IMG/VR virus record: IMGVR_UViG_3300029544_000001
Origin: a virus
Taxonomy: Duplodnaviria > Heunggongvirae > Uroviricota > Caudoviricetes
Length of the DNA: 64,000 nucleotides
Reading direction: 5' to 3' (one strand)
Below the pieces are notes generated by a model that saw nothing but the letters and a program-made list of their open reading frames with translations, ran no database searches and was not told the origin of the DNA. Shown here one piece after another: positions 1 through 56,681 of this stretch. The position numbers and the translations under genes are program-made. Every line of letters begins with the position of its first letter. Within the stretch, counting starts at the first letter, position 1.

Positions 1-142
1 TTACGTAGCCACATTAAAAATACATAGAAATCGGCCGAAGTGATTCACCCGCATTTCTTTTATTTGGTTGTTAAGTTAGAAAAAACCATATAATGTATTC
101 ATTTTGGAATATGAATAGATGACATATTCTAAAAGAGGCAAG

Positions 143-176
143 GACGTCCGGCTTGTGAAAGCCGGACGTTTTTTTA
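143..176 (+). terminator. Rho-independent terminator: GC hairpin GACGTCCGGC/GCCGGACGT followed by T7
   Basis: 10-bp perfect stem, 8-nt loop, then TTTTTTT on the + strand. Confidence 0.6.
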
Positions 177-217
177 TATCAGTAAGAGAATAAAGTAAGA
201 GAGCTCATGCATTCATG

Positions 218-243
218 AGGGCTCACCCGATAATCATTGGGGG
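218..243. repeat. IS left terminal inverted repeat
   Basis: matches the reverse complement of 1612-1637 at about 21 of 26 positions. Confidence 0.65.
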
Positions 244-1226
244 TATGCATAAATCTTAGCCAGTCTAAAGAGGAAGAATTTCTCATCCACTACTCCTCTT
301 AATGCGGTTCTGAATTGTTTGATTTTCGCATTAAAGGATTCAGCCGCCGCATTAGAGGATCTTTTATTATAAAAGTTAAGAATATCATCATAATGTTCAT
401 AGAAGGTTGCTGCAATTACATTGAAAGCATGAAAGCCTGCCTCTTCCACTTTATTATACCATTTAGCCATACTCAATCTTGCCGCATCTTTGATTGTATT
501 TTTGGCAAGAATCATTCTGAGTGAATGACATAATCCATACGCCTGTCCCAATTCCGGATATTCCTTAAAAAGAATTTTGGCTCTTTGTTTTTGTGCTGGG
601 GTCCATTTTTCGGAGGATTTAAACAGCAGATAGCGGCTTCTTGCCAACAGTTCTTTCTTTGAATCTCCATTTTCATATCTCATAGGCACATATGATTCCC
701 CTTTCTGCTTTGCTTCTTCCATCTCATCATTGGCTTCCTGGATTGCGTCCCAGCGGAGTTTGATACGCATTTCCTGCACTGCATCGCAAGCTAATTTCTG
801 GATGTGGAACCGGTCTATTACACGAGATGCCTTGCGGAAACAGAAGCGGACTATTTTACGCATTGAGTCCGATAAATCAAGTGTCACTTCTTCTACACTG
901 TCCAACAGGTGTTCGGGAATATGGCGTAAAGCCGCTATGACCGTCTCTGACTTCGTCCCTGCAACAATGGCGACAAGGCACATCTCACGACCATGCCTGT
1001 CCCTGTTGGTTACTATTGTATAAAGGTCGCCATTCGACAGGGAAGTCTCGTCAATAGCCAGATTAGGTCCAATGTTCTCAGGAAAGACAAGCCACTCTTC
1101 CGCATGGCTCAACTCTTCCCAATTACGATAACCGCTTAGCACATCCTTGTATTGCTTCTCAAAGGTAGATGCGTCAATATGATAGAAATCATCAAGCGTA
1201 CGGCAGGTCACCGGGGATGTGTCCAT
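234..1226 (-). pseudogene. ISL3-family transposase, C-terminal DDE segment (orfB); frame-shifted relative to orfA at a T6A4 run, so either disrupted or needs a frameshift
   Basis: 330 aa; C-terminal ...NAAAESFNAKIKQFRTALRGV... is typical of ISL3 transposases; combined length ~440 aa matches an intact ISL3 transposase. Confidence 0.6.
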
Positions 1227-4725: not shown

Positions 4726-5152
4726 AATTACTATTTTTATCGAAAATAATTAGTTACTACTTCCATTTCTGGACACTTTAAGTTGATTGTTCACAACTCT
4801 ATTAGGATAATTTGTTGAGGAAGCAGGGAGAGTCGAAGACCCAGCCACTTTATAGCAGGACATTAACAGTGTGTTACTTTCATTTACCCATACTTCCTTT
4901 ACAAATGACAGCTTTTTGAGCAAAATATTTACCTTTGCAAGCAATATGACTAAACCTACGGGTAAATCGAATCATTTTAGCCAAGAGCGAAGAGACAATA
5001 TAGTTGCAATCAGTGTTGTCCTTCAGACAGTTATAGCTGTCATATCTCTTTTGATTCAACTTTGCGAATAGCCGCTGTCATTTTGATTTCACAACCATAT
5101 TAGCCCTATGGTTGTCATCTTTGGGGAGTAATTTCAACTCCCCATTTTTATG

Positions 5153-5223
5153 AGGCCCATGCAGGAATCGAACCTGCGATCATGGTTTTGCAGACCATTG
5201 CCTTACCACTTGGCTAATGAACC
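5153..5223 (-). tRNA. tRNA-Cys (GCA)
   Basis: 71 nt; acceptor GGTTCAT/ATGGGCC (two GU pairs), anticodon loop CTGCAAA, T-arm GCAGGTTCGATTCCTGC. Confidence 0.85.
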
Positions 5224-5306
5224 AGATAGCTGGAAGTTTCACAACTTCACAGCTTCGCGGAAAGAAAAATAAGCTAATCCAATAACAATCTTTTTAACCT
5301 TAAATG

Positions 5307-5378
5307 CGCTCTTAGATGGATTTGAACCACCGACCTGATGATTAACAGTCATCTGCTCTACCACTAAGCTATAAGAGC
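5307..5378 (-). tRNA. tRNA-Asn (GTT)
   Basis: 72 nt; acceptor GCTCTTA/TAAGAGC, anticodon loop CTGTTAA, T-arm GGTGGTTCAAATCCATC. Confidence 0.85.
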
Positions 5379-5423
5379 AAATGATGTCTTTATCTCCCTA
5401 ACCGACCCATCCCCTTTCGGCGA

Positions 5424-5447
5424 TGGTGGAGGAATCGAACACTCCCA
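5424..5447 (-). other. tRNA-like fragment: T-arm-like hairpin GGGAGTGTTCGATTCCTCC followed by ACCA; no complete cloverleaf could be folded
   Basis: GGTTCGATTCC-type T-loop motif without recognisable D or anticodon arms. Confidence 0.3.
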
Positions 5448-5470
5448 TAAAGACATCTAACATACCGATT

Positions 5471-5920
5471 CTACCAACAGCTCGGTATCACACTCCCGGA
5501 CCAACGATTCCGGACAGGGCTTAGTTTACTTGTATATTGACTTGTCTCAACATAACCTGCATGTTCGTTCCCTTGTACTTCGGGCTTGTTGTACTCGGTA
5601 ATGGAGTCGAACCATTCTTTTCTGCTCGAAAGGCAGATGTCCTTTCCGATAGACGAACCGAGCAAACAGCCGGATTTTTCACCGGCTTTTGGCCAAAAAG
5701 TTTTAACTTTGCAGCCGTAATGGAAATTTATTTGCTGTTGCTTGTCCTCCTTGTACGGGAAATTCGCGCCCTCGTAAAGGAAATCAAAAGACGATAAGCC
5801 GTCCGTAGGACGTAAAAACAACAATTGAGCTTTCTTGCCATTTGGAATGTGAAATACGATCGGTTCACAGGCATTCAAGCATTTTACATAATTTCCATCC
5901 AGAGGAATAAAGGGGTGCAA
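5471..5920 (-). CDS. hypothetical protein (149 aa), uncertain
   Basis: ORF with non-repetitive composition between tRNA genes. Confidence 0.3.
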   Translation of the reverse strand: MHPFIPLDGNYVKCLNACEPIVFHIPNGKKAQLLFLRPTDGLSSFDFLYEGANFPYKEDKQQQINFHYGCKVKTFWPKAGEKSGCLLGSSIGKDICLSSRKEWFDSITEYNKPEVQGNEHAGYVETSQYTSKLSPVRNRWSGSVIPSCW

Positions 5921-6028
5921 AACATTTTTCCAAGATGTTTCTTAACAACCCATGCAGCCATCCCAGCGAAACCAAAGTTGGAAACTACATGGATCGCACC
6001 CCTCCTCTTTCCAATTTATTTATGAGTT

Positions 6029-6820
6029 TTAATTCGTCATCTTCAGAAATTCTGGAATTACCCCATACAGCGGTGTTTTTCCGTCCCATTTATCAATAAA
6101 CTGTTTATATAGAATTTCTTTAGTTAACCCTTTCGATGTGATAAGAGCCTGTTCGGTTTTTAATCTTTCCAGTTCGTTTTGCTTTTTCTGCTCTTCGATT
6201 TTCTGATCAATAACGGAAATATTAGTGTTAACCTCGTTTCTATTATCAATCTTTTCCCGGACTCGATCGCTAAATTCTAATTGGGCTGAAAATGACTTCA
6301 GGTCCAATCCTCTATCTTTAAATTCCGCCCTAACAATATCCTCCAGCTTCTTCTCAAAAGCTAAAGAACCCCCATCAGCCATAAGTGTATCTGTTTTATA
6401 TTTCCGGCTTTCTTCTTTAATAAGGTCGTAAATACGTGGTTCCAGAATATTGTCTTCCAAAGATCTCATAAATCCATCTCCGTTTCCGATATGTTTATTA
6501 TCAAAAACAACGTCAATTGCCTTGTCTTTGATAACTCTATATGAGTATAACGGAGTAGCATTGAACTCTGTATTGTCAGCAGCTTTTAGGGTAACTGATT
6601 TCTGAAATCCTCCACGCTGTTCAAACAATGGCACCTGAAACAACTCTGTTCCCCATTCCCATGTGGAAACTTTTCCGGATACAATCTTAAAATCTTCTTT
6701 ACCTTCCTTACCATAATTCTCCATAAGGACACCGGCATAGTTAGGAGCAACACGCTCACAAGATGAAAAAATCACTGTTGCCATAAGAGCAACCAACATA
6801 AACTTAATCTTCGTTTTCAT
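6029..6820 (-). CDS. lipoprotein (signal peptide + lipobox VIFSSC) with coiled-coil C-terminal half
   Basis: N-terminal MKTKIKFMLVALMATVIFSSC; 263 aa. Confidence 0.55.
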   Translation of the reverse strand: MKTKIKFMLVALMATVIFSSCERVAPNYAGVLMENYGKEGKEDFKIVSGKVSTWEWGTELFQVPLFEQRGGFQKSVTLKAADNTEFNATPLYSYRVIKDKAIDVVFDNKHIGNGDGFMRSLEDNILEPRIYDLIKEESRKYKTDTLMADGGSLAFEKKLEDIVRAEFKDRGLDLKSFSAQLEFSDRVREKIDNRNEVNTNISVIDQKIEEQKKQNELERLKTEQALITSKGLTKEILYKQFIDKWDGKTPLYGVIPEFLKMTN

Positions 6821-7025
6821 GTTTTTTGATAATTAATTTAATGATGTTAATAACTGGATAGCAAACCCCAAAACATATAGCAATTCCCAACCAAGCGTCA
6901 ACATGATTGAATACTCTATTGCCTATGAATAAGACCGCTATCATAAAAAAGAATTGTTCTATATACTTTTTCATCGCATATTAAGTTTGGTATATTTCAA
7001 AGAACTCTTATTGACTTATGTCATT

Positions 7026-7111
7026 GTGCCGCAAACAGGAGTCGAACCTGCATTATCCATTCGGACAAATGGATTTTAAGTCCATCGTGTCTACCAATTC
7101 CACCATTGCGG
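7026..7111 (-). tRNA. tRNA-Leu (TAA), long variable arm
   Basis: 86 nt; acceptor GCCGCAA/TTGCGGC, anticodon loop CTTAAAA, T-arm GCAGGTTCGACTCCTGT. Confidence 0.85.
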
Positions 7112-7362
7112 CATCATCTTATCAAGCCTTAAAGAACAAAGAAAAAATCCGGATAAAGAATGAGTTTCGGGTTTTCATCTTCTCCAACTCTTTATTGTCT
7201 TTTCTCAATTTCTTAATGTCTGCTTTATTGGAAGACACGTGTGTTTTAGCTCTCGTATTCAACTCCACTAAGGACTGAACCAATTGTCTCAAATTGGCAA
7301 TAATATTTGCCCTTTCAGATATGATTTGCTCTTTCATACTATAATTAATTTAATTAGTTAGT

Positions 7363-7435
7363 GGCGGAGAGCCGGACTCGAACCGGCGACCTCTTGGTTA
7401 TGAGCCAAGCGAGCTACCAACTGCTCCATCCCGCT
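7363..7435 (-). tRNA. tRNA-Met (CAT) with defective acceptor stem (5' AGCGGGA versus 3' TCTCCGC); possible pseudogene or 1-nt indel
   Basis: D-arm, anticodon arm (CTTGG-CTCATAA-CCAAG) and T-arm (GCCGG-TTCGAGT-CCGGC) are canonical; only 4 of 7 acceptor pairs form; restoring GCGGAGA would give 7 of 7. Confidence 0.6.
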
Positions 7436-9397: not shown

Positions 9398-9760
9398 TTA
9401 TAATTTTATTTGTTTAGAAATACACTTATCGCATATACCATCGTTCCGCATGTATTTGACTTTCGATAACTGGAGTCCACATTGCCTACAATAATATACG
9501 CGCTTGGGTTTAACTTTTATCGCATATAAAATTTTACGTTTATTGACATCATATATACCAGAAAGTTTTTCAAGTATCTGGTTATGTGTGAATTTGTTTG
9601 TTTTCATCAATTTCCAATAATCATGTCGGATTAACTTATCTCTTGCTTCTTTCTGATTCAACAAACCATTATCTCTCAATGCAATAATATAAGGATATGG
9701 AATATTGGTTATATCCGAAATCTTTTGAGCATACAAGTCATAAATCTGTGCATCACTCAT
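9398..9760 (-). CDS. hypothetical protein with C-terminal Cys4 cluster
   Basis: 120 aa; CRQCG...CDKC. Confidence 0.4.
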   Translation of the reverse strand: MSDAQIYDLYAQKISDITNIPYPYIIALRDNGLLNQKEARDKLIRHDYWKLMKTNKFTHNQILEKLSGIYDVNKRKILYAIKVKPKRVYYCRQCGLQLSKVKYMRNDGICDKCISKQIKL

Positions 9761-10080
9761 TTCTTTATCACTATTTTAGTTTGAAGGATTATAGATTTGG
9801 AGTCTTCAATATCACGTATAAGATTAAATGAATCTTCCAATAAGGCCAACATAACACGATTACTTTCTTCATGTGTCATATTTTCCCAGTCAATTTCTAA
9901 TTGTTTAGCTATTTCTTTCGCTAACTCATAAAACTTATTTGTCTTTGGAATATCCGTGACATCATATATTTCGTTTTGCTTTTGACCGAACAATAAACGG
10001 CTTAACTCATAATAACGAAAAAACGCCTCCAAAGTCTTCTTCTTATCTGGAGGCGCAATAGATAATTTGTTTTTTGTCAT
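9757..10080 (-). CDS. hypothetical protein
   Basis: 107 aa, 4-nt overlap with downstream gene. Confidence 0.4.
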   Translation of the reverse strand: MTKNKLSIAPPDKKKTLEAFFRYYELSRLLFGQKQNEIYDVTDIPKTNKFYELAKEIAKQLEIDWENMTHEESNRVMLALLEDSFNLIRDIEDSKSIILQTKIVIKK

Positions 10081-10099
10081 ATTTATAAATGATTATATA

Positions 10100-10345
10100 C
10101 GATTATCAACGATTTGTGTAATTTTGTAACCAACATGGTAAGATTAGTCATGTTGGTTGCCCTTTTAGTAGCAAACCTCACCGATGCGCCTGGAATATCA
10201 TGGATCAATTATGCTATTCTGGTTTATGATATTATTTCAGCCGCCATCGCAAGGTTTGCAGGACTAACCAAAAGGAGTCAGAAAGACTCTGCAAATTGAT
10301 GAATTTTATCTGTATGGCTGGAGAATATATCTCCGGCCTTTTTTA
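10100..10345 (+). ncRNA. candidate small RNA or short-peptide element, copy 1 (conserved 5' hairpin CCAACATG...CATGTTGG, 3' intrinsic terminator)
   Basis: nucleotide-level homolog of 13990-14238; terminator GGCTGGAGAATATATCTCCGGCC+T6 at 10316-10345; contains 61-aa ORF 10114..10299. Confidence 0.4.
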
Positions 10346-10412
10346 AGTAATAGTTGAAACTGGATAGGATTAGTTTAGAAAACCAAGTACATTATTGGAA
10401 AATTAATTGGCT

Positions 10413-10434
10413 ACAATTGTATTCAATTATCAAT
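10413..10434 (+). promoter_or_regulatory. conserved promoter/operator motif ACAATTGTATTCAATTATCAAT (palindromic core ACAATTGT) upstream of a -7 TAnnTTTG element
   Basis: near-identical 22-mer at 11229-11250; each is followed ~10 nt later by TAtcTTTG or TAtaTTTG and then a + strand small gene. Confidence 0.5.
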
Positions 10435-10479
10435 AAATAGCAGTATCTTTGCTGAAACGATTAATAAATATTTATCATT

Positions 10480-10653
10480 ATGAATATAGAAATTGGAGAC
10501 AGCGTAAAAATTGTCAATGCCATTGATCCCATAAAGATGGTTGTTATAGATAAAATAGACAATGATCATTTAACCGCAGTGTACTGGAGTCATACCCAAG
10601 GAGCATATCTTACAATAACAGGAAATATAAATGCTTTCGTAAAAATTGACTAA
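10480..10653 (+). CDS. small protein (57 aa), below ORF-track threshold
   Basis: ATG...TAA ORF downstream of the conserved promoter motif. Confidence 0.35.
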   Translation: MNIEIGDSVKIVNAIDPIKMVVIDKIDNDHLTAVYWSHTQGAYLTITGNINAFVKID

Positions 10654-10801
10654 CAAGCCCATTGCTTTTTATAATAAAATATAGGAACACACAAAAAACG
10701 TATCTCGACAACAATATACGAAGAATCAGTGTCCCTATATTTTTTTGCTTCAATAATAGCTTTCATATAACAAAATTTTATTCAATAATAATATTATAAT
10801 T

Positions 10802-11146
10802 TTAGCGTTGGTCCATATAGGCTAGTTCAACAAGGTCCCAAACCTTATCTGCTAAATATACTTCTATCAGCCTTACTTCATTTGCTATATTCGCATCATT
10901 AAGGGGGTATTTCCCCTTACATGATTGTTTTCCACGTAACCTTTCCAGAACATCCGTATCAACAGTTACCTTGAAAAGTTTAGGAGCTTTTTTATTCTCT
11001 TCTTCTATTTGAGGAATAATCTCAGTAATAAAATCAAAGGATGTCTTCTGCTTATCCAATATGAACTCTACCAAACGGTCGGTATTGTGTAAGGCATATC
11101 TACTTTTTAATGCCAAAAATAATTTTGCATTTTTAGGCTCTTCCAT
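10802..11146 (-). CDS. hypothetical protein; weak paralog of 11532..11903
   Basis: 114 aa; shared N-terminal L.LAL(K/H)(S/K)RY and identical leader motif. Confidence 0.45.
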   Translation of the reverse strand: MEEPKNAKLFLALKSRYALHNTDRLVEFILDKQKTSFDFITEIIPQIEEENKKAPKLFKVTVDTDVLERLRGKQSCKGKYPLNDANIANEVRLIEVYLADKVWDLVELAYMDQR

Positions 11147-11228
11147 ATTCTTTATCGTTTTCTATAGAATAGAATGAAAAAAGGGGAATGGTTATGTTAT
11201 TGGATTTATTTTGAAAAATTTATTAACC

Positions 11229-11250
11229 ACAATTGTGCTCAATTATCAAT
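11229..11250 (+). promoter_or_regulatory. second copy of the conserved promoter/operator motif ACAATTGTGCTCAATTATCAAT
   Basis: see 10413-10434. Confidence 0.5.
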
Positions 11251-11286
11251 GATTTTATATATTTGTGATTAAAAACAATTAATACT

Positions 11287-11535
11287 ATGAACATAAAAGA
11301 AAAAGAGCAAATTGAATTGTTAAGTAAAGTTATTGGAAGACGAATCAACCATGAAAACGACTCTTATATCGCAACACGTATTTGGGATGGGTGTTGCACC
11401 TATCTTTCTGCCAATAGACAACTTTTTTCAACTTTCAAGAACGGTATTCCCGAATATCATGTAGAAGAAGCTATAAAAGTTGTAATAATGTATATCAACG
11501 ACCGACATAAACCTGCTTTCTATCCAGAAGACTAA
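11287..11535 (+). CDS. small hypothetical protein (82 aa)
   Basis: + strand ORF downstream of the second promoter motif. Confidence 0.45.
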   Translation: MNIKEKEQIELLSKVIGRRINHENDSYIATRIWDGCCTYLSANRQLFSTFKNGIPEYHVEEAIKVVIMYINDRHKPAFYPED

Positions 11536-11903
11536 CGCACAGAAGAAGCCTGCATCGCAAAAGCAAGCACCTCTCCTGCAAAATTATTTATTACATTTAG
11601 AGCGTAATTTTTCCAATGTTCAGAAATTTGTACCCCATATTCCTCTTCCAATTTCTGAACATTGGAAGGATTAAATTCTATATTTATGAGTTTTGATAAA
11701 TGCACGCACTTATCCTCGATTTCTGCCAGTACGTCATATACATTCTCAACTGTTGCTTTATCATCTAATACCAATTCCTGAATATTATCTGCTGCCCATA
11801 TAACGGGGTATCTTTTATGCAACGCCAATGAAAGTTTTCTTTCTAAAGAAGTTGAATGTATATCTATATTGTTACTTTCGTTTGTATGCAACTCTTTTTC
11901 CAT
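11532..11903 (-). CDS. hypothetical protein; weak paralog of 10802..11146
   Basis: 123 aa. Confidence 0.45.
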   Translation of the reverse strand: MEKELHTNESNNIDIHSTSLERKLSLALHKRYPVIWAADNIQELVLDDKATVENVYDVLAEIEDKCVHLSKLINIEFNPSNVQKLEEEYGVQISEHWKNYALNVINNFAGEVLAFAMQASSVR

Positions 11904-12011
11904 ACTATCTTCTTAAAATTGTTTTCTATAGAATAGAAAAAAAAGAAGAAATACGGTTATGAAAAAGGCATTGAAATCAGAAATAATATGCCAGTTCTTA
12001 TTGCCAGACAA

Positions 12012-12281
12012 TCATCTTTTAGATCTAAAAAACGATATACCCAAAGCATAAATAACGATACCAATTACCCCAATAGCTAAGAAAAACTTATATAGTAATT
12101 CATAATGTTCGTCATACATATACAAAAGGAAAAAAGTAAATACAGACACTAATAACATACATGTACTATATCTTTTCCACGAAATACGTTGACTTTTTTC
12201 TTTTTTTAAAGACAACCCACATATAACAGCAATGCAAGGTGTTACTATAATCCAAATAATAACACAAATAAACGCAACCAT
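12012..12281 (-). CDS. small membrane protein (3 predicted TM helices)
   Basis: 89 aa, hydrophobic, immediately downstream of an HTH gene. Confidence 0.45.
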   Translation of the reverse strand: MVAFICVIIWIIVTPCIAVICGLSLKKEKSQRISWKRYSTCMLLVSVFTFFLLYMYDEHYELLYKFFLAIGVIGIVIYALGISFFRSKR

Positions 12282-12286
12282 AGCAA

Positions 12287-12643
12287 TTATTGTTTTTCGA
12301 TATTAATTGTATATCCCAGAACATCTACTGTTTTAAGTAATGTATCTATACTAATAGTAGTTGTTTTTCTCTCAATATTCGCAATTGTAAGGTGAGAATA
12401 CCCTGCTTTTTCAGCCAAAGCTCTCTGTGAAATTGCTTTTTCTTTACGAATTAATGCTAATATACTTCCTAATTCTTGTGCATCATTTGTACGATATGAA
12501 TGTTGGCCGTTCTCAATTACAAGAATATGCTGTAGTGCTTTAATATACGACATCATATTCCCCATCTCAAAATTGCTACTTCCTTTTTCTAAACGATATA
12601 TAGCAGTAGGCATAACCCCCATTTGAAAACAAATATCTTTCAT
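12287..12643 (-). CDS. XRE-family HTH regulator (HTH at the C-terminus)
   Basis: ISQRALAEKAGYSHLTIANIERKTTTISIDTLLKTVDVLGYTINI. Confidence 0.6.
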   Translation of the reverse strand: MKDICFQMGVMPTAIYRLEKGSSNFEMGNMMSYIKALQHILVIENGQHSYRTNDAQELGSILALIRKEKAISQRALAEKAGYSHLTIANIERKTTTISIDTLLKTVDVLGYTINIEKQ

Positions 12644-12702
12644 TTTAATGGTAGATTCAAAGGCAATTTGTAATAACTAAAGTTTTATTTTCCAAGTCCT
12701 TT

Positions 12703-13257
12703 TTATGATTCCCAATTAAAGGCTGCGTTCCAAATAGCACAAAGGGCAATAATAGTTATTATTAGGCTCATAATATATCCAAATATTCGAGCATTATTTC
12801 TCTCACTCATCCCCCAAACAATAGAATATGATCCGCCTAATACAAAAATGAAAAATAATGTATTGGCTATACCAGCATTACCAATAGCTAAAAAAATTAC
12901 AAAGAGTACAAACGATGCCAATACAATACCCATAAATTTAAATAACCAGCCCCATCTTTTGTCTGACTTAGATTCTGGTGAGGGAGTTATACCTTCCATA
13001 ATATAATTATAATAATCAGTATTAAGCAGAACTTCCTTTGCATAATCACCCATGTCACTTCTATCAAACAATAGTCTTACAATTATATCTTTAGATTCTT
13101 CTATACCTTTTCCTGTAATATTAGAATACCAATTTACAATATTATATATATTTTCTCCTTCCCTAAATTTTGCACATATCTGTTCGTCAGATATTGTAGG
13201 GCTAAACAGTTCTTTTTTCTCTATTTGATGAGGGTCCGAAGTGTTCATTGTTTTCAA
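12703..13257 (-). CDS. membrane protein, soluble N-terminal domain plus 4 C-terminal TM helices
   Basis: 184 aa; overlaps upstream HTH gene by 55 nt. Confidence 0.45.
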   Translation of the reverse strand: MKTMNTSDPHQIEKKELFSPTISDEQICAKFREGENIYNIVNWYSNITGKGIEESKDIIVRLLFDRSDMGDYAKEVLLNTDYYNYIMEGITPSPESKSDKRWGWLFKFMGIVLASFVLFVIFLAIGNAGIANTLFFIFVLGGSYSIVWGMSERNNARIFGYIMSLIITIIALCAIWNAAFNWES

Positions 13258-13687
13258 TTTTTATTGTATATCCTAAGACATCTACAATTTTAAGTAATGT
13301 ATCTATTCTAACAATATGTTTTTTCGATTCAATATTAGCGATTGTAACATACGTTATTCCGGCTTTATCAGCTAACGCACGCTGAGTATATTCAAGTTTA
13401 CGAGTGGATGTCATCCAATCTGCAAAACCCTCAAAATCACAAATAACTTTCCTTTTTTTGCCTTTTAACAAAACCATTTTAGATTTTATAGCCGCCAAAT
13501 AAGTACAAACAAGATTTATATTATAATTATTTGACGCTTTCTCTAAATACTGCAATTGATTAAATGTAAATCCTGTCAAACGACATAGTTCATTTTTACC
13601 TATACCCGCAGACTCACGTTGCACTATTAATTGTTGGCTAAACTCAATTCGATTCATTATATTATAATTTGTAGAACAAAAATACAA
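13202..13687 (-). CDS. tandem-HTH XRE-family regulator; paralog of 12287..12643
   Basis: N-terminal HTH (QRESAGIGKNELCRLTGFTFNQLQYLE) and C-terminal HTH (TQRALADKAGITYVTIANIESKKHIVRIDTLLKIVDVLGYTIKI). Confidence 0.6.
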   Translation of the reverse strand: MYFCSTNYNIMNRIEFSQQLIVQRESAGIGKNELCRLTGFTFNQLQYLEKASNNYNINLVCTYLAAIKSKMVLLKGKKRKVICDFEGFADWMTSTRKLEYTQRALADKAGITYVTIANIESKKHIVRIDTLLKIVDVLGYTIKIENNEHFGPSSNREKRTV

Positions 13688-13715
13688 TAAAGTATTTTAT
13701 ACTGCAAAATATTTA

Positions 13716-13955
13716 TTATCTTTTCTTTATTATTTTCTCTTCCACAAACCCAACGACCTCATCTATCTTGCTTATACAGTCCTCTATCAGGCCGATATAG
13801 TCCTGCATTTTTTCTCCTCTGGAAGACATTTGTAAGCCATCTGGGAGAGAATCGTAGGAGTCTTGTTCTTCATTTAAGATGTCCTCCAGTTCTCCCTTCG
13901 CTTCTTCCAGGGAACTAATAACATCGTTGAATCTACCTTTCCTTTCTTTGTTCAT
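13716..13955 (-). CDS. small acidic coiled-coil protein
   Basis: 79-aa ORF. Confidence 0.35.
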   Translation of the reverse strand: MNKERKGRFNDVISSLEEAKGELEDILNEEQDSYDSLPDGLQMSSRGEKMQDYIGLIEDCISKIDEVVGFVEEKIIKKR

Positions 13956-13989
13956 TTATTTAAATACGATTATATTCGATTATACACAT

Positions 13990-14238
13990 TATTATTAAAT
14001 TTGTAGCCAACTATGATAATGAATATCATGTTGGCTACTCTTTTAATGGCAAATTCCGTTGATTACCAAGAGGTAAGGGTTGCTATTGTTCTGTATGCTA
14101 TTGCCCAAGTATTACGACAATCAGCAGCCTTAATCAAGGCTATCACAAAATTTGCACGGGTGGTCAAGCGAGGCAAGACCTCTTACAATTGATTATTTTT
14201 ATCTTAGCTGGAGTGCGGAATATCGCACTCCTTTTTAT
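13990..14238 (+). ncRNA. candidate small RNA or short-peptide element, copy 2 (homolog of 10100-10345)
   Basis: hairpin CCAACTATG...CATGTTGG at 14008-14035; terminator GGAGTGCG-loop-CGCACTCC+T5 at 14208-14238; only a 48-aa ORF (14046..14192) remains in frame. Confidence 0.4.
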
Positions 14239-14560
14239 TTAGTTTCACACATGCTAATTTTATTCATATTCTCTATCAAAAAATTAAATGTTGTATATTT
14301 GTAACCCCTTTCAGCATCTTTGATATATAAACCAAATCAGAGGGCAAACTTAGGGTTAAGAAATATGTTTAACATATTTAATAGACAACCTCATTCTTTT
14401 TAGAACTGTTAGAATGAGGCTCTGTCTCAAAACTGCAAAACAGTCCAGTGTTGTGGCGATAAACCTGTGCATGTTCGTTCCTATTACAGATTTCGGTTTG
14501 GTAAATGGGAACACGTGACAGAACATTGCAGAAGACTACCGTGTCATTATCGCTAAAAGA

Positions 14561-14600
14561 CTAGTCTTTCCGAGGATACGTGACAGGTATCCTCGTTTCT
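14561..14600 (+). terminator. + strand intrinsic terminator (CGAGGATAC-gtgacag-GTATCCTCG+T-run) with no annotated + strand gene upstream
   Basis: 9-bp perfect stem followed by TTTCTTTTTT. Confidence 0.5.
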
Positions 14601-14603
14601 TTT

Positions 14604-15038
14604 TTAATCTGTATTAGACAAATATTCTTTACTAAAATACCCTTTTGCAATAAGCCACTTAATCATAGACACACAACTGTCAAAAGGGCTGTTCTCGATA
14701 TGGGTACCGGCAAAACAATCTACGGTATATCTACATACGGAGAAGTTATATCCAGCCTCATACTTAATCAATTCTGGATGGTGAAGAACATTTGGTTTGT
14801 CGCAAGGAATCTCATAAGGAAGCAGTTCAAGTAACCGGACCAAGCTCCATGCTGGAATGTCATTGTTGTCTATGTTTTCCAGTGATGGTGGACACAATTG
14901 TAGTTCCCATTCCAATGAATCAGTGCTTGATTTTGTACAGCGATATACCAAATCTGCTGTTTCAGGTTTTACACCTAGCTCTATTAATTGTTGCGACTGC
15001 TCTATGCTTGTTGCAACTTGTGTTGTAAACTGTGCCAT
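14604..15038 (-). CDS. hypothetical protein; paralog of 2426..2947
   Basis: see 2426..2947. Confidence 0.55.
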   Translation of the reverse strand: MAQFTTQVATSIEQSQQLIELGVKPETADLVYRCTKSSTDSLEWELQLCPPSLENIDNNDIPAWSLVRLLELLPYEIPCDKPNVLHHPELIKYEAGYNFSVCRYTVDCFAGTHIENSPFDSCVSMIKWLIAKGYFSKEYLSNTD

Positions 15039-27649: not shown

Positions 27650-28918
27650 TTACAATATTGCCACTAAAGTATTGTACGCTGCTCTTCTGGTCAAAATAGC
27701 ATTCTGCATACAACCTATTGTCAAATAACCTTCAATTTCTTTACTCTTAGATTTATTTCGATTAGCCTTTACGTTCCGACCAATACCTCTAACAACACAA
27801 CCATCCGGCTTATCCTTAACATAGCCAAGGCCACCAACTTTATGTTTCCCAGTTTCAACGGCTCTAAGGCAATCCATTACGAATTTATTCAATTCATTAA
27901 TATCAACCCGAACATTACATACTGGAAGGGTCTGAGTCGCCCAACTATATTCTCCATTGCCTTTATATAAATATCGGTTAACCGAATCCACAGCCTTCTT
28001 CAACGTAATACCACGTTTTCTGATGGTTCTTGATTCTATTTCTTTCTGGAAGGTTTTAAGACGATTGGGAGAGAAAGAAATCATACTTCCCTTAATGCTG
28101 AAACCTAGAAATTTGAACCACTTGTCCATAGTCAGGTACTCTACTTTCTTGGGATTCAAATTCATTGATTTTTCGGCCAATCTCTTTTGTAAAATGGTCA
28201 TAGCCTTTTCATAGTCCGGACCAACGAACAACATATCATCCGAATACCTTACGTAAAACCCATTCAATTGGGACAGTTCATCATCCAAGCTATATAGCAA
28301 CACGTTGGCTAACCAGCTTGCTACTGCGCATCCTTGTTTAAGTGATTGATATTTCTCATGCAGTTCGTTGTTCTCATCGAAATACAATCCGCAATGATAG
28401 TATTTTCTTAATACATCAATTAACACAGAGTGACCATACTTAGCTTCCACCTTATCAAAAGCTGCGTCAATAAACCGGATAGGAACAGTGTCGAAATATT
28501 TACTTAAATCAGATTTCCAGCCCACATAACCATCACTTTTCATGTCAACAATTGTGTGACTTACTTCCAGAACCACTTTACCGCAACCAATACCGACCTG
28601 ATAAGATTTACAAGCAGGATGAATCATCTCTGGCATTAAATCAAATAGCAAATCATTCGCGATGCTTAGGATTATACGATCAATAGGTTCGTTGACATAT
28701 ACAGTACGAAACTCTCCGTTATCCTTCGGAATTTGTGCAATATGTGGTGGTGTTATTTGATATTTACCATTCAACATAGCTTCTGCCATACGAATTCTGG
28801 TTGGTTCTTCTGTCAGTTTGATAAGTTCGCTCTTCCGAATATCCTTCAGAACGCCTTTCTCAATTGCTTTTGTCCATCTATTAATGTCGAAGAACATTGT
28901 AAGAATCTTATCTTTCAT
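27650..28918 (-). CDS. reverse transcriptase (RT domains 1-7; class unresolved)
   Basis: IPKDNGEFRTVYVNEPIDRII, DLSKYFDTV, QGCAVASWLANVLL, YVRYSDDMLFVG, NPKKVEYL, FLGFSI. Confidence 0.75.
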   Translation of the reverse strand: MKDKILTMFFDINRWTKAIEKGVLKDIRKSELIKLTEEPTRIRMAEAMLNGKYQITPPHIAQIPKDNGEFRTVYVNEPIDRIILSIANDLLFDLMPEMIHPACKSYQVGIGCGKVVLEVSHTIVDMKSDGYVGWKSDLSKYFDTVPIRFIDAAFDKVEAKYGHSVLIDVLRKYYHCGLYFDENNELHEKYQSLKQGCAVASWLANVLLYSLDDELSQLNGFYVRYSDDMLFVGPDYEKAMTILQKRLAEKSMNLNPKKVEYLTMDKWFKFLGFSIKGSMISFSPNRLKTFQKEIESRTIRKRGITLKKAVDSVNRYLYKGNGEYSWATQTLPVCNVRVDINELNKFVMDCLRAVETGKHKVGGLGYVKDKPDGCVVRGIGRNVKANRNKSKSKEIEGYLTIGCMQNAILTRRAAYNTLVAIL

Positions 28919-36662: not shown

Positions 36663-37355
36663 TTATGCAGCCATTCGCGCATCATATTCCGCACGCTTTT
36701 GAGCATTTCCCAGAACTTCCCATGCTGCATTTACCTCTTGCATCTTTTCATTGGAACCACCGGCATCAGGATGAGCAGATTTAGCAGCTTGTTTGTATGC
36801 AGCTTTAATTTCCGCTTCCGTAGCATCATGCTTCACACCCAAGATTTCATAATAGTTAGCGGCTTTTGCGACTACTTCTTCAAAGTTCAAACGGAATTTC
36901 AGAGCATCGAAAGACGCTTTTGTAGCAGCATGGATTTTCTTCTTAAAATCACGCGCTGCACAATCCAGGTCTTTCTTTGTAGGCACCAAACCAATACGGC
37001 TCCATACACTTCCCTCAACATCCCACTTCTTTGACACTTTGCAATCACTTGTACGCACTATGATTTCAGCCGGTGTACCGCTACGCAATTTGGATGCAAT
37101 ACCACCATTATCTTCACGCAGCCCAGCTTCCACCGCTTTCACAGTCCAGAACGTAGCTACCACATTCTTCCACACGCGGAAAATCTCGTCCTGTGTCTTA
37201 TCCTTTGGCGTGTATTCATCACCGGCAAAATTCAGTCCTGAATAATGCGTTTCTCCGTCACGGTTTACACTCTTATACACCAAAGTTACGCCTACCAACT
37301 CGTTTGCGTTCAAGTTCTCAAATTGTACACTGTTATACCTACTAATTGTTCCCAT
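36663..37355 (-). CDS. J-domain (DnaJ-like) protein with unknown N-terminal domain
   Basis: C-terminal YYEILGVKHDATEAEIKAAYKQAAKSAHPDAGG...AWEVLGNAQKRAEYD with the HPD tripeptide. Confidence 0.65.
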   Translation of the reverse strand: MGTISRYNSVQFENLNANELVGVTLVYKSVNRDGETHYSGLNFAGDEYTPKDKTQDEIFRVWKNVVATFWTVKAVEAGLREDNGGIASKLRSGTPAEIIVRTSDCKVSKKWDVEGSVWSRIGLVPTKKDLDCAARDFKKKIHAATKASFDALKFRLNFEEVVAKAANYYEILGVKHDATEAEIKAAYKQAAKSAHPDAGGSNEKMQEVNAAWEVLGNAQKRAEYDARMAA

Positions 37356-37390
37356 GATTACTGTTTTTTAGGAATTTTCTGCAATAGCGC

Positions 37391-37430
37391 ATTGTAGGCA
37401 ATCGGGGAATCGAACCCCGACCTACCAAAA
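37391..37430 (-). other. tRNA-like T-arm minihelix (TCGGGG-TTCGATT-CCCCGA) at the left edge of the 1.7 kb non-coding region
   Basis: perfect 6-bp T-stem with canonical T-loop; no complete tRNA could be folded. Confidence 0.35.
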
Positions 37431-39102
37431 TAGGAACGCACCACCGAAAACGTTTACACGCTTTCGATTGCGTTAAAGCCCAATCAGAGCATACTGGACA
37501 TTCACCTATCCAGCACACTCTATGTACAACTTTTTGCCCGTCACTAACAGCGCAACGGAGCCGTGCGCCCTGTGTATGAGTGCTCACCAACTGCAACCAA
37601 ACCGATTGAATTGCAGCTTTTTACATACGCTTTCGCCTATGTGGTAGGTAATTTCCATCGTTACCGTTAAAGCACACTTTTGGCATACACTTTTTCACTG
37701 TTAGGGCTGCGTTGCGTTGGTGATTACATATATACGCAAGGGCATATATCTTTCTCAGTTCGCATTAGGGGCAGATTTTCACACCTTTGTGTAAACATCC
37801 GTTTTTCGGTATGCAGTTGGCAACTGGGCACAACTATGGCACAAAGTTTACACTTTTCCCTTTTGCTGCATGGAGCTACGCACCTATGGCACGCTTTTGA
37901 AGCAGACTTATGTATATAGCTCCCCCATAGTGCCAGCGACGGTTTGCATGACAATCTTTAATAACTGACCATTACAGTTATGGGTATTCTTTTCCCGTTC
38001 ACAAAACATCCCGTTTTATGTCTGAGCGTGCGCTTTTGCTTTCGCTTTCGCACTCCTTTTGCTTTTATGTACTACTTTCTTTTGTCCGTTTCTTACTTCT
38101 TGTTTTTACGGTTATTAATTACGTTTATTATCTCGTATCTGTTTGCGGTTTTCGCTTTTTGTAGGTTTACAGATAAAACCAAAACGGAAAGTAAACACTT
38201 TATCAAGTAGCCGTTATCTTAACTTGACGTTGCAAAGATATGGCAAACATTTGGAACTGCAAAGTATTTTAGCAAAAAACTTTCATTTTAAGGCTAAAAT
38301 AATTTGCAAACACTTGATTTTCAGATACATAAAAACATCAACAAAACAGATAAATCTATAAATAGCTGATAATCAACAAAATAATCATCTCAACACGTGC
38401 GCGTGTACGCGGGGTTATTTATTAGGGCAAATCGTGACACACATACACACACATATACGCGCGGGATGTTGTTACCTGGATGCAAAAAGGAACGGGAACA
38501 AATCACATACACAAAAGGGTAAATTTGTAATAATTTCAAAAGAGTATCAAAAACAAAAGAATAGGCAAAACAAAGAACAAAAGCACATTTGTTTCACTTT
38601 TGTATATTAGTGAAACAATATAATTAACTGATTTACAGCAATATGGCAATAAAAAATATAAAAAAAAGAAGGCAGAGCCGGTCAATTATGGAGCGAATAC
38701 CGTATATATAATCCGACCTGATTTTTCAATCTCGTTTTTTCAAAAGTCGATCATAGTACAAAAAGCCAATTCTCTTCCAGACCACGTTATTCAATACAAT
38801 AAAATTATCTCCAATTTCTAACATCAATTTTATAATATATCGAATCTGGAAGTAGAGATTTCGTAATTATCCCAGCATCAATTTATTAACTTTATTTTTT
38901 ATAATACAGAGAAATAATTATTTTCCAATATATTCAAATTGACAACGATATAAAAATTCAATATATAAGTTTTCTGATTTTTTTCAGCCACCTATTTTTT
39001 CAGTCTCGTTTTGTGGTAATTAAGCTAAATTTTTATATCCAAATTGATGTTTATCAAAAAATCATATTACATTTGCCTAACAATTGATTATTTTATCCAA
39101 AT

Positions 39103-40062: not shown

Positions 40063-41622
40063 TCATGGTTGTTCTGCCATCTTTTTGTTATAAAGCTCCT
40101 CCACATCACTTGCCTGATTTACCTGCACGTTATAGCTTATAATCTTACCAACTGACAACTGTTGAGGATGAAGTTTAACTGTATTTTTTTGAGGAAGCTC
40201 TTTCCATAGGGTTCTCAAATCTTCTACAGGCACCTTCGATTCGTTCGAGAAACGTTTAAGCAAATCTTCATAAGCAGCTTTCGTCACTTCTGATGGACGA
40301 GGTTGCTGATTACTTTCCCGTTCTTTCACAAACTCAATCATAAGCCATATTGCATACTCGGCGTCCGTCAACATATTCGTATCTTTTTCGGCGACTTGCC
40401 GGAGAGATTCAAGAAATATCAATCTGGAGGTTCGGTCCTCTACTCCTTTTCGTTTAATTTTTCTGGAAGATGAGGGAGATTGATTGATGTTTTTAATTTT
40501 ACTGGGAGTCACATAACATACAGGTTCTCCATTTTGCATCTTAACATCGAATCCAAAAATATTCTTCATGTCTTGTTCTGAAAGAGAGAAATCAGGATTG
40601 ATAGTTTTTAAATCATTCCAAGCACGGTAAAGAATATCTTTGAAATATTCAACTGGAATGTAATTATCTGGAGAGTCTTCATCATATTGCAAATATCCCC
40701 AAACTTCTCTTATTGCCATATCAAAATCATTATCGGCAAAATCTGGAAGGTTAATGATGGTTTCAAAATCAGAAGAAGAAAGATCTGGAAAAGATAAGTC
40801 ACGAGAATTGAACCATTCCAAAATCTTCATATCAGTTTCTTTATTAAACTCACTTCGTTCGTTATGATTCTCTTTATTCTCTATATTATCTATATATATC
40901 TTATTCTGTTGTTCAATATGAGCGGACCCTCGTTCAATATGAACACACCCTCGCTCATATTGAGCGCACCCTCGTTCATATTGAGCGGACCCCTGTTCAT
41001 ATTGAACGAGGTTAGATTGCTCTTTGACTACATTTTCTGATAGTTTTTCTATGTCTTCACCTTTTTCTTCGTCTATTTGCGAGGGTGTGTTCATATTGAG
41101 CGAGGGTGTGTTCATATTGAGCGAGGGTGTGTTCATATTGAGCGAGGGTGTGTTCATATTGAGCGAGGGTGTGTTCATATTGAGCGAGGTGTGTGGATAT
41201 TGACGAACGACATCGTTCAATATGGTCAATGGAATCGCTGAAATTGGACGTACCTCGCTATTTAAGCACAAGCCTCGCAGATATACCCATCCTTTATCTG
41301 ATATTTGAGAACTTACTTTATGTATTGCTCGTATCTCACTCCAATTTACATAGAATGTGCAAAGTGCCCCTTTATTTTGAGAACAGCTGATAAGATTAAG
41401 TTGCTTCAAGGTATCTATTGCCCGGCGTACTGAACTAATAGAAGTTCCCATGACGTCAGCTAGTTCTTTGTTGGATATGGCGCATGTTGTCTTATCTCCA
41501 TCCGTATAGCCTCTTCGTAACAGATGAAATAAAATCATAAAGCCATCACTGGATGTTAATGTTGCCATTGCGTATGGGATGCACTTCCAGTGGTTATCGA
41601 ATTTCTCGGAAAACGTACTCAT
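40063..41622 (-). CDS. putative replication initiator: N-terminal winged-helix/HTH domain, internal TPSLNMN x5 and QYERG(C/S)A repeats encoded by iterons
   Basis: 519 aa; N-terminal ...LRRGYTDGDKTTCAISNKELADVMGTSISSVRRAIDTLKQLNLI...; iteron arrays embedded in the ORF. Confidence 0.45.
   Translation of the reverse strand: MSTFSEKFDNHWKCIPYAMATLTSSDGFMILFHLLRRGYTDGDKTTCAISNKELADVMGTSISSVRRAIDTLKQLNLISCSQNKGALCTFYVNWSEIRAIHKVSSQISDKGWVYLRGLCLNSEVRPISAIPLTILNDVVRQYPHTSLNMNTPSLNMNTPSLNMNTPSLNMNTPSLNMNTPSQIDEEKGEDIEKLSENVVKEQSNLVQYEQGSAQYERGCAQYERGCVHIERGSAHIEQQNKIYIDNIENKENHNERSEFNKETDMKILEWFNSRDLSFPDLSSSDFETIINLPDFADNDFDMAIREVWGYLQYDEDSPDNYIPVEYFKDILYRAWNDLKTINPDFSLSEQDMKNIFGFDVKMQNGEPVCYVTPSKIKNINQSPSSSRKIKRKGVEDRTSRLIFLESLRQVAEKDTNMLTDAEYAIWLMIEFVKERESNQQPRPSEVTKAAYEDLLKRFSNESKVPVEDLRTLWKELPQKNTVKLHPQQLSVGKIISYNVQVNQASDVEELYNKKMAEQP
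40912..41011. repeat. iteron array 1: about 4.7 imperfect 21-bp direct repeats TTCA(A)TATGA(G/A)C(G/A)(C/G)(A/G)CCCTCG, next to an AT-rich stretch at 40871-40910
   Basis: units at 40912, 40933, 40954, 40975, 40996. Confidence 0.7.
41080..41205. repeat. iteron array 2: five perfect 21-bp tandem repeats CGAGGGTGTGTTCATATTGAG plus a degenerate sixth, inverted relative to array 1
   Basis: units at 41080, 41101, 41122, 41143, 41164; the reverse complement matches the array-1 unit TTCAATATGAACACACCCTCG. Confidence 0.8.
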
Positions 41623-56051: not shown

Positions 56052-56513
56052 ATGGCAATAATTAACAATGTAGCATACAGCTGGTCTATGATCCGCATTT
56101 CCATACCAGCATTGGATATTTCAGAAGATTCTACTATTATGCAAGGAGTTTCTGAAATCAAGTGGAACAAGACTCGTAAAGTTGAAAACAACTACGGTAT
56201 TGGAGGAAATGCTATCAATCGTGGTTTTGGCAATAAAACCTGTACAGCCTCCATTACAATGGATTATAATACCGTTTCCCAACTCCGAGCATTGGCTGGT
56301 TCTTTAATGGATTTGGGAGAATTTGACTTGATCATCTCATTTACTAATGCTTATGCCGGTGAAGACTGGACCGCCGAAACTGTAACGCTAAAGGGATGCC
56401 TCTTTAACGAAGACGGAATGGAAAGTAAACAAGATGATACAAACATTACAAAAGAATTCAATTTGAATCCTTTCGACATTATCACAGGAGAAGGAACTAG
56501 TTCTTGGCTATAA
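56052..56513 (+). CDS. putative tail tube protein
   Basis: 153 aa directly after the sheath candidate. Confidence 0.4.
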   Translation: MAIINNVAYSWSMIRISIPALDISEDSTIMQGVSEIKWNKTRKVENNYGIGGNAINRGFGNKTCTASITMDYNTVSQLRALAGSLMDLGEFDLIISFTNAYAGEDWTAETVTLKGCLFNEDGMESKQDDTNITKEFNLNPFDIITGEGTSSWL

Positions 56514-56583
56514 CTTCTAGTATAATACGTTTTTGAAAAGGCGAGTTGAAAACGGCTCGCTTTTCATTTTATCTATAAAATAA

Positions 56584-56612
56584 AAAGGGATGCGTTAACA
56601 CATCCCTTTATT
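56584..56612. terminator. bidirectional intrinsic terminator AGGGATG-loop-CATCCCT flanked by A5 and TTTATT; a weaker hairpin at 56541-56564 precedes it
   Basis: 7-bp stem with U-runs on both strands; separates the + tube gene from the - Abi gene. Confidence 0.6.
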
Positions 56613-56681
56613 ATCCGTTTTATAGTGCAGAATTGACGACTAAGCTCAAATATGCACTTTTTACGTTGCAAAAATAATGTT

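Follow-up and report, generated by a model that had tools for sequence, protein, structure and literature searches.

Two paralogous units on the plus strand of a Bacteroides phage

The window analysed here is a 64,000-nucleotide (nt) stretch of viral DNA (IMG/VR record IMGVR_UViG_3300029544_000001) from a tailed Bacteroides phage, with PHROG matches to tail sheath, tape measure, portal, protease, NAD-ligase and methyltransferase. Two elements on its plus strand, copy 1 (10100-10345) and copy 2 (13990-14238), had been picked out in an initial annotation as homologs lying opposite to their surroundings. Reciprocal nhmmer searches (E about 1e-9 to 2e-9) and a clear MAFFT alignment confirmed the homology, and most neighbouring genes are indeed on the minus strand. 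An 8-bp inverted repeat had been placed at the head of both elements; it is exact in copy 1 (CCAACATG at 10130-10137 and CATGTTGG at 10149-10156), while in copy 2 it carries one bulged T (CCAAC-T-ATG...CATGTTGG). The two strong intrinsic terminators described at the far ends were found again, at 10316..10345 (+) in copy 1 (stem 10316-10338 plus T-run, with compensatory changes among variants) and at 14210..14238 (+) in copy 2 (stem 14210-14231 plus T-run). The statement that the elements flank a pair of duplicated helix-turn-helix (HTH)/membrane-protein cassettes is loose, since copy 2 is one gene away from them and copy 1 is separated by ~1.7 kb and four genes, two of which are on the plus strand.

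The reading frames changed the view of what these elements are. Copy 2 had been described as frame-broken, with a stop soon after its start that left only a 48-amino-acid (aa) open reading frame (ORF), and the apparent conservation of structure but not of frame was taken to favour a non-coding RNA. However, ATG ATA ATG AAT ATC ATG TTG GCT ACT CTT TTA ATG reads MIMNIMLATLLMANS, and in the ORF list the frame stays open for 59 codons plus TGA (14013..14192 (+); MIMNIMLATLLMANSVDYQEVRVAIVLYAIAQVLRQSAALIKAITKFARVVKRGKTSYN). The TAA that had been taken as the stop, within CTTTTAATG, belongs to another frame, and counting the 59-codon frame from Met12 gives the 48-aa ORF. For copy 1, the reported 61-aa ORF does exist, but it is counted from a TTG at 10114, within the promoter, that has no equivalent in copy 2; homology places the start at the ATG at 10135, which gives 54 codons plus TGA (10135..10299 (+); MVRLVMLVALLVANLTDAPGISWINYAILVYDIISAAIARFAGLTKRSQKDSAN). 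The case for a non-coding RNA therefore fails at its premise, which rested on a misread frame.

Comparison of the copies with each other and with 67 related IMG/VR loci gave a consistent picture. The two peptides can be aligned from Met1 to a common ...N-stop with 31-40% identity, the indels inside the ORFs are 9, 27 and 3 nt long, all multiples of three, and the sole 1-nt indel of the alignment lies upstream of the ATG. The initial annotation had named homologs with an intact ~60-aa ORF as the observation that would speak against an RNA, and this is what the related loci contain: the copy 1 ORF is intact in 11 distinct ORF sequences, and the copy 2 ORF is intact wherever the gene body exists, including the copy-2-type L068 and L070 (the latter with a C-terminal extension). 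The ratio of nonsynonymous to synonymous polymorphism (pN/pS, Nei-Gojobori) was 0.42 for the most divergent copy-1 pair, 0.35 for copy 2 versus L068 and 0.24 for copy 2 versus L070, and in the copy-2 group the variable sites fall 14/7/23 on the three codon positions, with the third position dominating. A search of 5.8 billion proteins returned 35 clusters, among them natural in-frame indel variants (+5, -1 and -6 aa) and a 59-aa form that is copy-2-like but divergent. Variants with lengths of 49, 57 and 46 aa represent alternative start calls or truncations and have no bearing on which AUG is used, and a few singleton database entries of the family are frameshifted. Contigs with exact copy-2-type variants number 871 and 222, and some stand in GenBank "MAG: Bacteriophage sp." records, annotated as hypothetical protein. 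The in-frame indels, the pN/pS values of 0.24-0.42 and the hundreds of contigs with these ORFs lead us to conclude, with high confidence, that both elements are protein-coding genes of one small-protein family.

One lineage departs from this pattern. In L024/L025/L027, where the neighbouring 107-aa gene is 81-82% identical, codon 8 is followed by a 1-nt deletion, and 1 nt has been inserted close to the 3' end of the element (MVRLVMQVPF-stop). Also lost there are the 5' hairpin (-5.9 kcal/mol, z-score +1.3) and, in the -7 box described below, the G. Because promoter, hairpin and ORF have decayed jointly, this element is a pseudogene or "ghost" copy and not an ORF-free RNA gene.

By sequence and modelling, the products make up an orphan family whose members are small, hydrophobic and basic, with two predicted helices. 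The 54- and 59-aa peptides have a grand average of hydropathicity of 0.6-0.76 and a net charge of +2 to +6, an AlphaFold2 (AF2) model places helices at residues 2-16 and 23-53 with a predicted local distance difference test score of 70, and the C-terminal helix is basic and amphipathic, strongly so in copy 2. An exhaustive HMMER search of 1.84 billion representatives retrieved matches only from this phage lineage; the peptides had no match in Pfam at E <= 1, PHROGs, NCBIfam or PADLOC, nor by tblastn against GenBank phages, and a Foldseek comparison of the AF2 model with viral structures gave nothing but generic helical hairpins, none of them at E < 1. Nor was there a sequence or covariance-model match to the known families of type I toxins (Hok/Gef, Ldr, Fst, TisB, Ibs, ShoB, TxpA/BsrG and others). 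We also considered a holin, of which the size, basic C-terminus and dual Met starts are reminiscent, but rejected it because the neighbours are small regulatory or early-type genes, no lysis gene is adjacent and the transmembrane propensity is marginal.

Each ORF has signals of its own. In copy 1 a promoter/operator module at 10090..10126 (+) carries 10-bp-phased repeats (TGATTAT-ATA-CGATTAT-CAA-CGATTTG) and a -7 box, TAATTTTG, at 10119-10126; in copy 2 the module at 13967..14003 (+) carries CGATTAT-ATT-CGATTAT-ACA-CATTATT and the -7 box TAAATTTG at 13996-14003. At motif level, both boxes fit the Bacteroides sigma-ABfr -7 consensus TAnnTTTG, with the ATG 8-9 nt downstream and the phased CGATTAT repeats 18-20 nt upstream. 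The bare TAnnTTTG motif is not enriched in the window (89 occurrences versus 84 expected). The composite of repeat and -7 box occurs exactly four times in the 64 kb, always on the plus strand, within 10090-14003 and directly before a small plus-strand ORF; this count, and an expectation of zero, are merely descriptive because the pattern was derived from the same four sites. In Bacteroides thetaiotaomicron the motif is centred at -7, and only about 3.7% of 5' untranslated regions (UTRs) are shorter than 10 nt (PMC7366714). From that spacing we infer transcription start sites (TSSs) near 10130 and 14007, which would leave leaders of 5-6 nt and put the core of the 5' hairpin at the extreme 5' end of each transcript. 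On the minus strand of the same modules (10092-10120 and 13969-13998), the CGATTATA repeats read TATAAT within sigma-70-like matches (10/12) that point at divergent 107-aa and 79-aa genes, whose starts are 54-57 nt from the ATGs of the small ORFs; by their sequence, the repeats may serve both divergent promoters.

The units vary as wholes among relatives. In L028 and L009, which have neither copy 1 nor the palindrome, the promoter module is kept before other genes. Copy 2 keeps its promoter, its hairpin and nine initial codons in 35 fetched loci, where a different gene follows: L058 (5445-5891 (-)) and 34 others read MIMNIMLAT, then II-stop, with a gene for a 148-aa membrane protein starting ~20 nt further on. 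The latter protein has sub-threshold similarity to SLATT_1 (E 0.058) and 8xMP (E 0.012), and the copy-2 slot seems to host interchangeable membrane-acting cargo. As judged from sequence, each copy is thus a promoter-gene-terminator unit of the "moron" type that is gained, lost or swapped among relatives.

The phage carrying both units is probably temperate, although the hints are indirect. The only GenBank phage match of the window is an 8% stretch of BS-TP1, a temperate, integrase-bearing Bacteroides phage. Assemblies of B. xylanisolvens and B. faecis contain copy-2-type genes, as do contigs 0.2-0.9 Mb long (for P0004, 103 of 254 index blocks), a distribution that would imply an integrated prophage state for a phage lineage of ~100-115 kb; L070 itself is an ENA contig of 342,798 bp. 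The peptide family was not found in GTDB representative genomes.

A predicted mRNA fold that encloses the start codon

The initial annotation was right that RNA structure matters here, although the structure belongs to an mRNA. We folded the transcripts in silico from the predicted TSS to the terminator and obtained z-scores from 200 dinucleotide shuffles. Copy 1 folded with -75.6 kcal/mol (z -5.5), copy 2 with -69.2 kcal/mol (z -4.35) and the divergent L068 with -79.4 kcal/mol (z -6.4), and none of the 200 shuffles equalled these values. Two other small plus-strand units nearby had no excess structure (z about -0.2).

The three independent folds converged on one architecture, in which the whole mRNA forms a long rod made of helices P1, P2 and P3, apical helices, a small side hairpin and the terminator. 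P1, a helix of 16 bp, joins the 5' end and the first start codon (AUG1) within it to a segment whose first nucleotides are the stop codon and which extends into the 3'UTR. In copy 1 this 3' strand is UGAUGAAUUUUAUCUGU (10297..10313 (+)), paired with 10133-10150; in copy 2 it is UGAUUAUUUUUAUCUUAG (14190..14207 (+)), paired with 14011-14028, and no stretch is better conserved between the paralogs than the 3'UTR block within P1. P2 is formed by the 3' arm of a local 5' hairpin and a segment downstream, and P3 joins GCAAAYY...GAU to AUC...RRUUUGC. The inner rod of copy 1 (10153..10271 (+)) thus has P2 at 10153-10163 with 10260-10271, P3 at 10171-10178 (GCAAACCU) with 10252-10259 (AGGUUUGC), and the apical helices P4/P5; that of copy 2 (14031..14167 (+)) has P2 at 14031-14040 with 14158-14167, P3 at 14049-14055 (GCAAAUU) with 14149-14155 (AAUUUGC), and then a 25-bp apical helix.

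A second conformer is predicted for the nascent RNA. In copy 1 a local hairpin at 10126..10160 (+), with its core CCAACAUG/CAUGUUGG at 10130-10156, holds AUG1 (10135) in its 5' arm and the AUG of codon 6 (AUG6, 10150) in its 3' arm (-16.5 kcal/mol, z -3.0). The counterpart in copy 2, at 14003..14038 (+), is formed by GUAGCCAAC-U-AUG...CAUGUUGGCUAC and also holds AUG1 (14013) and AUG6 (14028); folded as a 61-nt fragment it reached -23.7 kcal/mol (z -6.2). The local hairpin cannot coexist with P1/P2. It is the minimum-free-energy structure in all three homologs for 5' fragments of up to 150-170 nt, and the rod takes over once the stop codon and 3'UTR are included; in copy 1 the best hairpin-retaining fold is less stable than the rod by 11.0 kcal/mol. 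In the ensemble of the full-length transcript, pairing extends to the A and G of AUG1, whose probability of being unpaired is at most 0.10. Sequestration of the translation start by a 5' stem-loop and/or a 5'-3' interaction, which is a criterion for type I toxin mRNAs (PMC8594479, PMC5416894), was thus seen in silico in three homologs.

Sequence variation follows the predicted pairing. P1 is compensated by lineage (ACAUG:CUGU in copy 1, CUAUG:CUUAG in copy 2), and in P3 the copy types differ by three to four double changes of CG to UA, while a further one, GC to AU, is seen inside the copy-2 lineage. The RNAalifold consensus energy had a z-score of -6.5 against column-shuffled alignments (0/200). 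Over ten variants the local hairpin is 94% paired, with two doubly changed pairs (UA/UG/CG and AU/GC series). In the copy-1 lineage, a gapless alignment of 13 distinct sequences, all 16 P1 pairs are invariant on both strands, and within the ORF only 8 of 115 paired sites are variable, compared with 15 of 50 others (p = 3e-4), a bias that runs in the same direction at every codon position. P1 relies on G·U pairs and exists on the plus strand only, and in all three homologs the fold of the complement is less stable, by 4-10 kcal/mol, than that of the plus strand. We consider it probable that the mRNA fold is under selection.

Competing explanations and related systems

We favour, with moderate confidence, an explanation in which the two copies are paralogous, self-contained transcription units, each with a host-type promoter, an almost leaderless small ORF and an intrinsic terminator, whose selected mRNA fold buries the start codon as in the control of type I toxins. 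The nascent mRNA would form the 5'-terminal hairpin around AUG1 and AUG6 and, once the 3' end had been made, would refold into the long rod, in which the 5' end with its AUG is paired with the stop codon and the 3'UTR block. Folding would hold the peptide untranslated until the 5' end was opened by processing, unwinding or loss of the 3' block. Such control logic resembles that of type I toxin mRNAs (hok, aapA1), from which it would follow that the peptide is harmful to, or active on, the cell membrane; a toxin-like function, which we draw from this analogy, is put forward tentatively, as a possibility that is doubtful by itself.

Several observations weigh against this explanation. Structure of this strength is not unique, as about 4% of 220-nt windows in the genome reached z < -4 in a noisy scan with 16 shuffles (copy 2 scored -1.8 there with its terminator cut off), and the complementary strand of the units is itself structured (z -4.1 to -5.9). 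The comparative depth is shallow, at three lineages, and only two pairs covary within the copy-1 lineage. The two covarying pairs of the hairpin could equally reflect a DNA palindrome, because they follow the -7 box by 1-3 nt, a place that coincides with the predicted TSS or precedes it. The rod is better than the hairpin-retaining fold by only 1.6 kcal/mol in copy 2 and 3.6 kcal/mol in L068. An abundant variant, L070/P0004, lacks the stop codon, the 3' strand of P1 and the terminator, yet it persists on at least 148 contigs, from which P1 would be dispensable; this variant retains P2, P3 and the inner rod. The helices of the peptide are marginal as transmembrane segments (best 19-residue Kyte-Doolittle value 1.73; Hessa sum about +5 kcal/mol).

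The search for a partner RNA also gave little support. Neither unit contains a perfect TAnnTTTG on its minus strand, and no minus-strand terminator is common to both copies. Pairing with the mRNAs of the membrane proteins, as the initial annotation had envisaged, did not stand out: complementarity to the translation-initiation regions of local minus-strand genes, the membrane and HTH genes included, was within the control distribution (z between -1.0 and +1.6). A structured ORF-free region at 14305-14603 fared no better as a partner (z -1.1 and +0.1), a tile scan of the whole window for complementarity gave the expected tail only and no target common to both copies, and Rfam at E <= 1 over 9500-15000 returned only spurious miRNA-like matches on the unrelated inverted repeat 11592-11686. 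As the two terminators would not act in the minus-strand direction, any transcripts reading through from the surrounding minus-strand genes would be antisense to the units over their whole length.

The hok mRNA has a long 5'UTR, a Shine-Dalgarno sequence, a mok leader ORF and the Sok antisense RNA, and it is activated by 3' trimming. The phage mRNA differs in being nearly leaderless, with the AUG itself sequestered, in having no antisense RNA detected by sequence and in showing no sequence similarity to hok (Pfam, Rfam). What the two have in common is the layout, in which the 5' and 3' ends pair and full-length hok is silent (a state suggested here by the predicted fold), the transient 5' hairpins during transcription, and the presence of multiple copies, including decayed ones. 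The hok/Sok systems of plasmid R1 and E. coli chromosomes also share the ~50-aa hydrophobic peptide and the compact, very stable mRNA (PMC5416894; see also PMC9841398). In aapA1/IsoA1 of Helicobacter pylori, a succession of metastable structures hides the translation start while the mRNA is being made, until 5'-3' end-pairing replaces them, much as predicted for the phage mRNA, and the full-length aapA1 mRNA is inert until it is processed (PMC5416894). The aapA/IsoA family includes "ghost" copies without promoter or ORF, which the decayed L024/L025/L027 copy resembles; some members are on prophages or mobile elements, and new ones were found via the mRNA fold and not the peptide (PMC5416894). 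AapA1 is a 30-aa peptide whose 5'UTR is fully overlapped by IsoA1 and for which toxicity and 3' processing have been demonstrated, whereas the phage peptides have 54-59 aa and two helices and are known from sequence alone.

Further systems resemble the units in part. The type I toxins of B. subtilis prophages (txpA/RatA, bsrG/SR4, yonT/SR6) are small hydrophobic peptides of 38-59 aa made from structured mRNAs that limit translation (PMC3834814); their antitoxins are convergent RNAs over the toxin 3' end, for which no promoter or terminator was seen here. In B. thetaiotaomicron, of the same host genus, putative type I toxin-antitoxin loci with small ORFs in divergent or antisense arrangement were proposed on the basis of differential RNA sequencing (Ryan et al. 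2020, PMC7366714). They are pairs on the chromosome, recognised by antisense transcripts that were observed, and the likeness to the phage units is one of description. Phage morons (PMC3594210) share the promoter and terminator of their own between phage operon genes and are present, absent or replaced among relatives, but the term names an architecture and not a mechanism, and a start-codon-burying mRNA fold is outside that concept. The phage units thus resemble a type I toxin mRNA yet cannot be filed among type I toxin-antitoxin systems, and are better regarded as a new, nearly leaderless variant of that logic.

The strongest competitor, to which we give a lesser but serious chance, is that these are ordinary moron-type genes for a harmless accessory or membrane protein (for example, one for superinfection exclusion), with a fold that merely stabilises the mRNA or shields it from minus-strand duplexes and does not act as a switch. 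5'-terminal hairpins are known as mRNA stabilisers, and the layout of the units, their presence or absence among related phages, the relatives on 0.2-0.9 Mb contigs and the integrase of the nearest GenBank phage are all compatible with such genes, as are the failure to find an antitoxin by sequence and the survival of the L070 variant without P1 and terminator. However, a stabiliser need not bury the start codon in both conformers, nor pair the AUG region with the stop block in three lineages, and the other small plus-strand units of the region do without such structure.

It is improbable, but less so than the two readings that follow, that the transcripts are dual-function RNAs, serving as peptide message and also as a regulatory or decoy RNA (an RNase III substrate, a sponge, or a cis-antisense partner of minus-strand read-through). 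Their very strong conserved structure would suit this, as would their position antisense within gaps of a minus-strand gene array in which neither terminator acts on the minus strand, and prophage RNAs such as IsrK offer a precedent (PMC4825925). Against it, target complementarity is not above background, there is no Rfam family, and no minus-strand coding sequence lies opposite the units for cis regulation.

We regard it as very unlikely that the selected object is something other than the plus-strand RNA, be it a DNA operator for a neighbouring HTH protein at the palindrome or a processing or insulating structure formed by the rod in minus-strand read-through. The location of the covarying hairpin pairs at or before the predicted TSS, the two XRE-type HTH genes nearby and the highly structured minus strand would fit, but 12-bp arms and the U:A, U·G, C:G series suit an RNA better than an operator, the G·U-dependent P1 forms only on the plus strand, which is the more stable one in three homologs, and L028 and L009 carry the same promoter without the palindrome. 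The original proposal of a ~200-240-nt non-coding small RNA with an incidental ORF, for which the strong conserved structure, the one lineage with a broken ORF and the few frameshifted singleton entries could be cited, is scarcely tenable given the intact homologous ORFs of both paralogs, their in-frame indels only, their pN/pS values, the third-position excess in the copy-2 group and the loss of promoter G and hairpin in the broken lineage.

If paralogous small-protein units with a start-burying fold are indeed what the phage carries, they would offer a candidate, defined by sequence and easily testable, for an RNA-fold-controlled, small membrane-active peptide in Bacteroidota, a phylum that initiates translation independently of Shine-Dalgarno pairing and whose type I toxin systems are to date putative only. 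A 2025 account describes type I systems as discovered so far only in Proteobacteria, Firmicutes and Tenericutes (PMC12390103). A further-reaching version, which we think rather unlikely, sees in the units modules like type I toxins, carried by a Bacteroides phage or prophage that is widespread in the human gut and adapted to a host whose initiation is not Shine-Dalgarno-based; there the AUG of a nearly leaderless mRNA would be hidden first by the hairpin and then by the stop/3'UTR block, and minus-strand read-through would replace the antitoxin and so link the peptide to the state of lysogeny or lysis. Metagenomes of the human gut contain the family in abundance, so that any part it had in maintaining the prophage, excluding superinfection or killing the host would bear on gut phage-host dynamics. 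The case also illustrates that one hairpin-plus-terminator element can combine a genuine ORF with an RNA structure that is under selection.

Other features of the window

Downstream of copy 2, a plus-strand region at 14294-14603 begins with a TATATTTG box within TGTATATTTGTAACC, which resembles the copy 1 promoter, followed by ~299 nt without an ORF longer than 34 aa. The region folds with -87.1 kcal/mol (z -4.3), ends in a terminator-like hairpin at 14571-14595 and has no Rfam match, and we list it as a candidate non-coding RNA. The copy-2-like gene of L070 has no terminator of its own, so its transcription would run into a region of this type.

In the scan with 16 shuffles, the most structured 220-nt windows were 40921-41140 (-), 56401-56620 (-), 1-280 (both strands) and 37321-37540 (-), with z from -7 to -9.5; all exceed the tile that covers copy 1 (10081-10300, z -6.2).

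Between the two copies lie further duplications. Two successive cassettes of an XRE-type HTH gene and a membrane-protein gene (118 aa + 89 aa; 161 aa + 184 aa) occupy 12012-13687 (-), with the HTH genes at 12287-12643 and 13202-13687, and share a 97-nt repeat, 79% identical, at the HTH C-termini. A tandemly duplicated module of convergent genes is found at 10395-11180 and 11211-11944. It has a 63-nt promoter repeat (CAATTGT-N3-CAATTAT plus -7 box) ahead of plus-strand ORFs of 57 aa and 82 aa, and a TCTATAGA-palindrome repeat upstream of minus-strand genes of 114 aa and 123 aa; the minus-strand genes are paralogous (27% identity, E 7e-5) and the plus-strand ORFs are unrelated. The inverted repeat at 11592-11686, with 37-nt arms that are 81% complementary, separates the convergently oriented genes for 82 aa and 123 aa and may terminate transcription in both directions.

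Elsewhere in the window, five tRNA genes (Cys, Asn, Glu, Leu and Met) are clustered at 5152-7434 (-), and PHROG matches identify a transposase-like ORF and a reverse-transcriptase-like ORF, the latter at 27650-28918 (-) (phrog_1423, E 4e-20) and possibly part of a diversity-generating retroelement.

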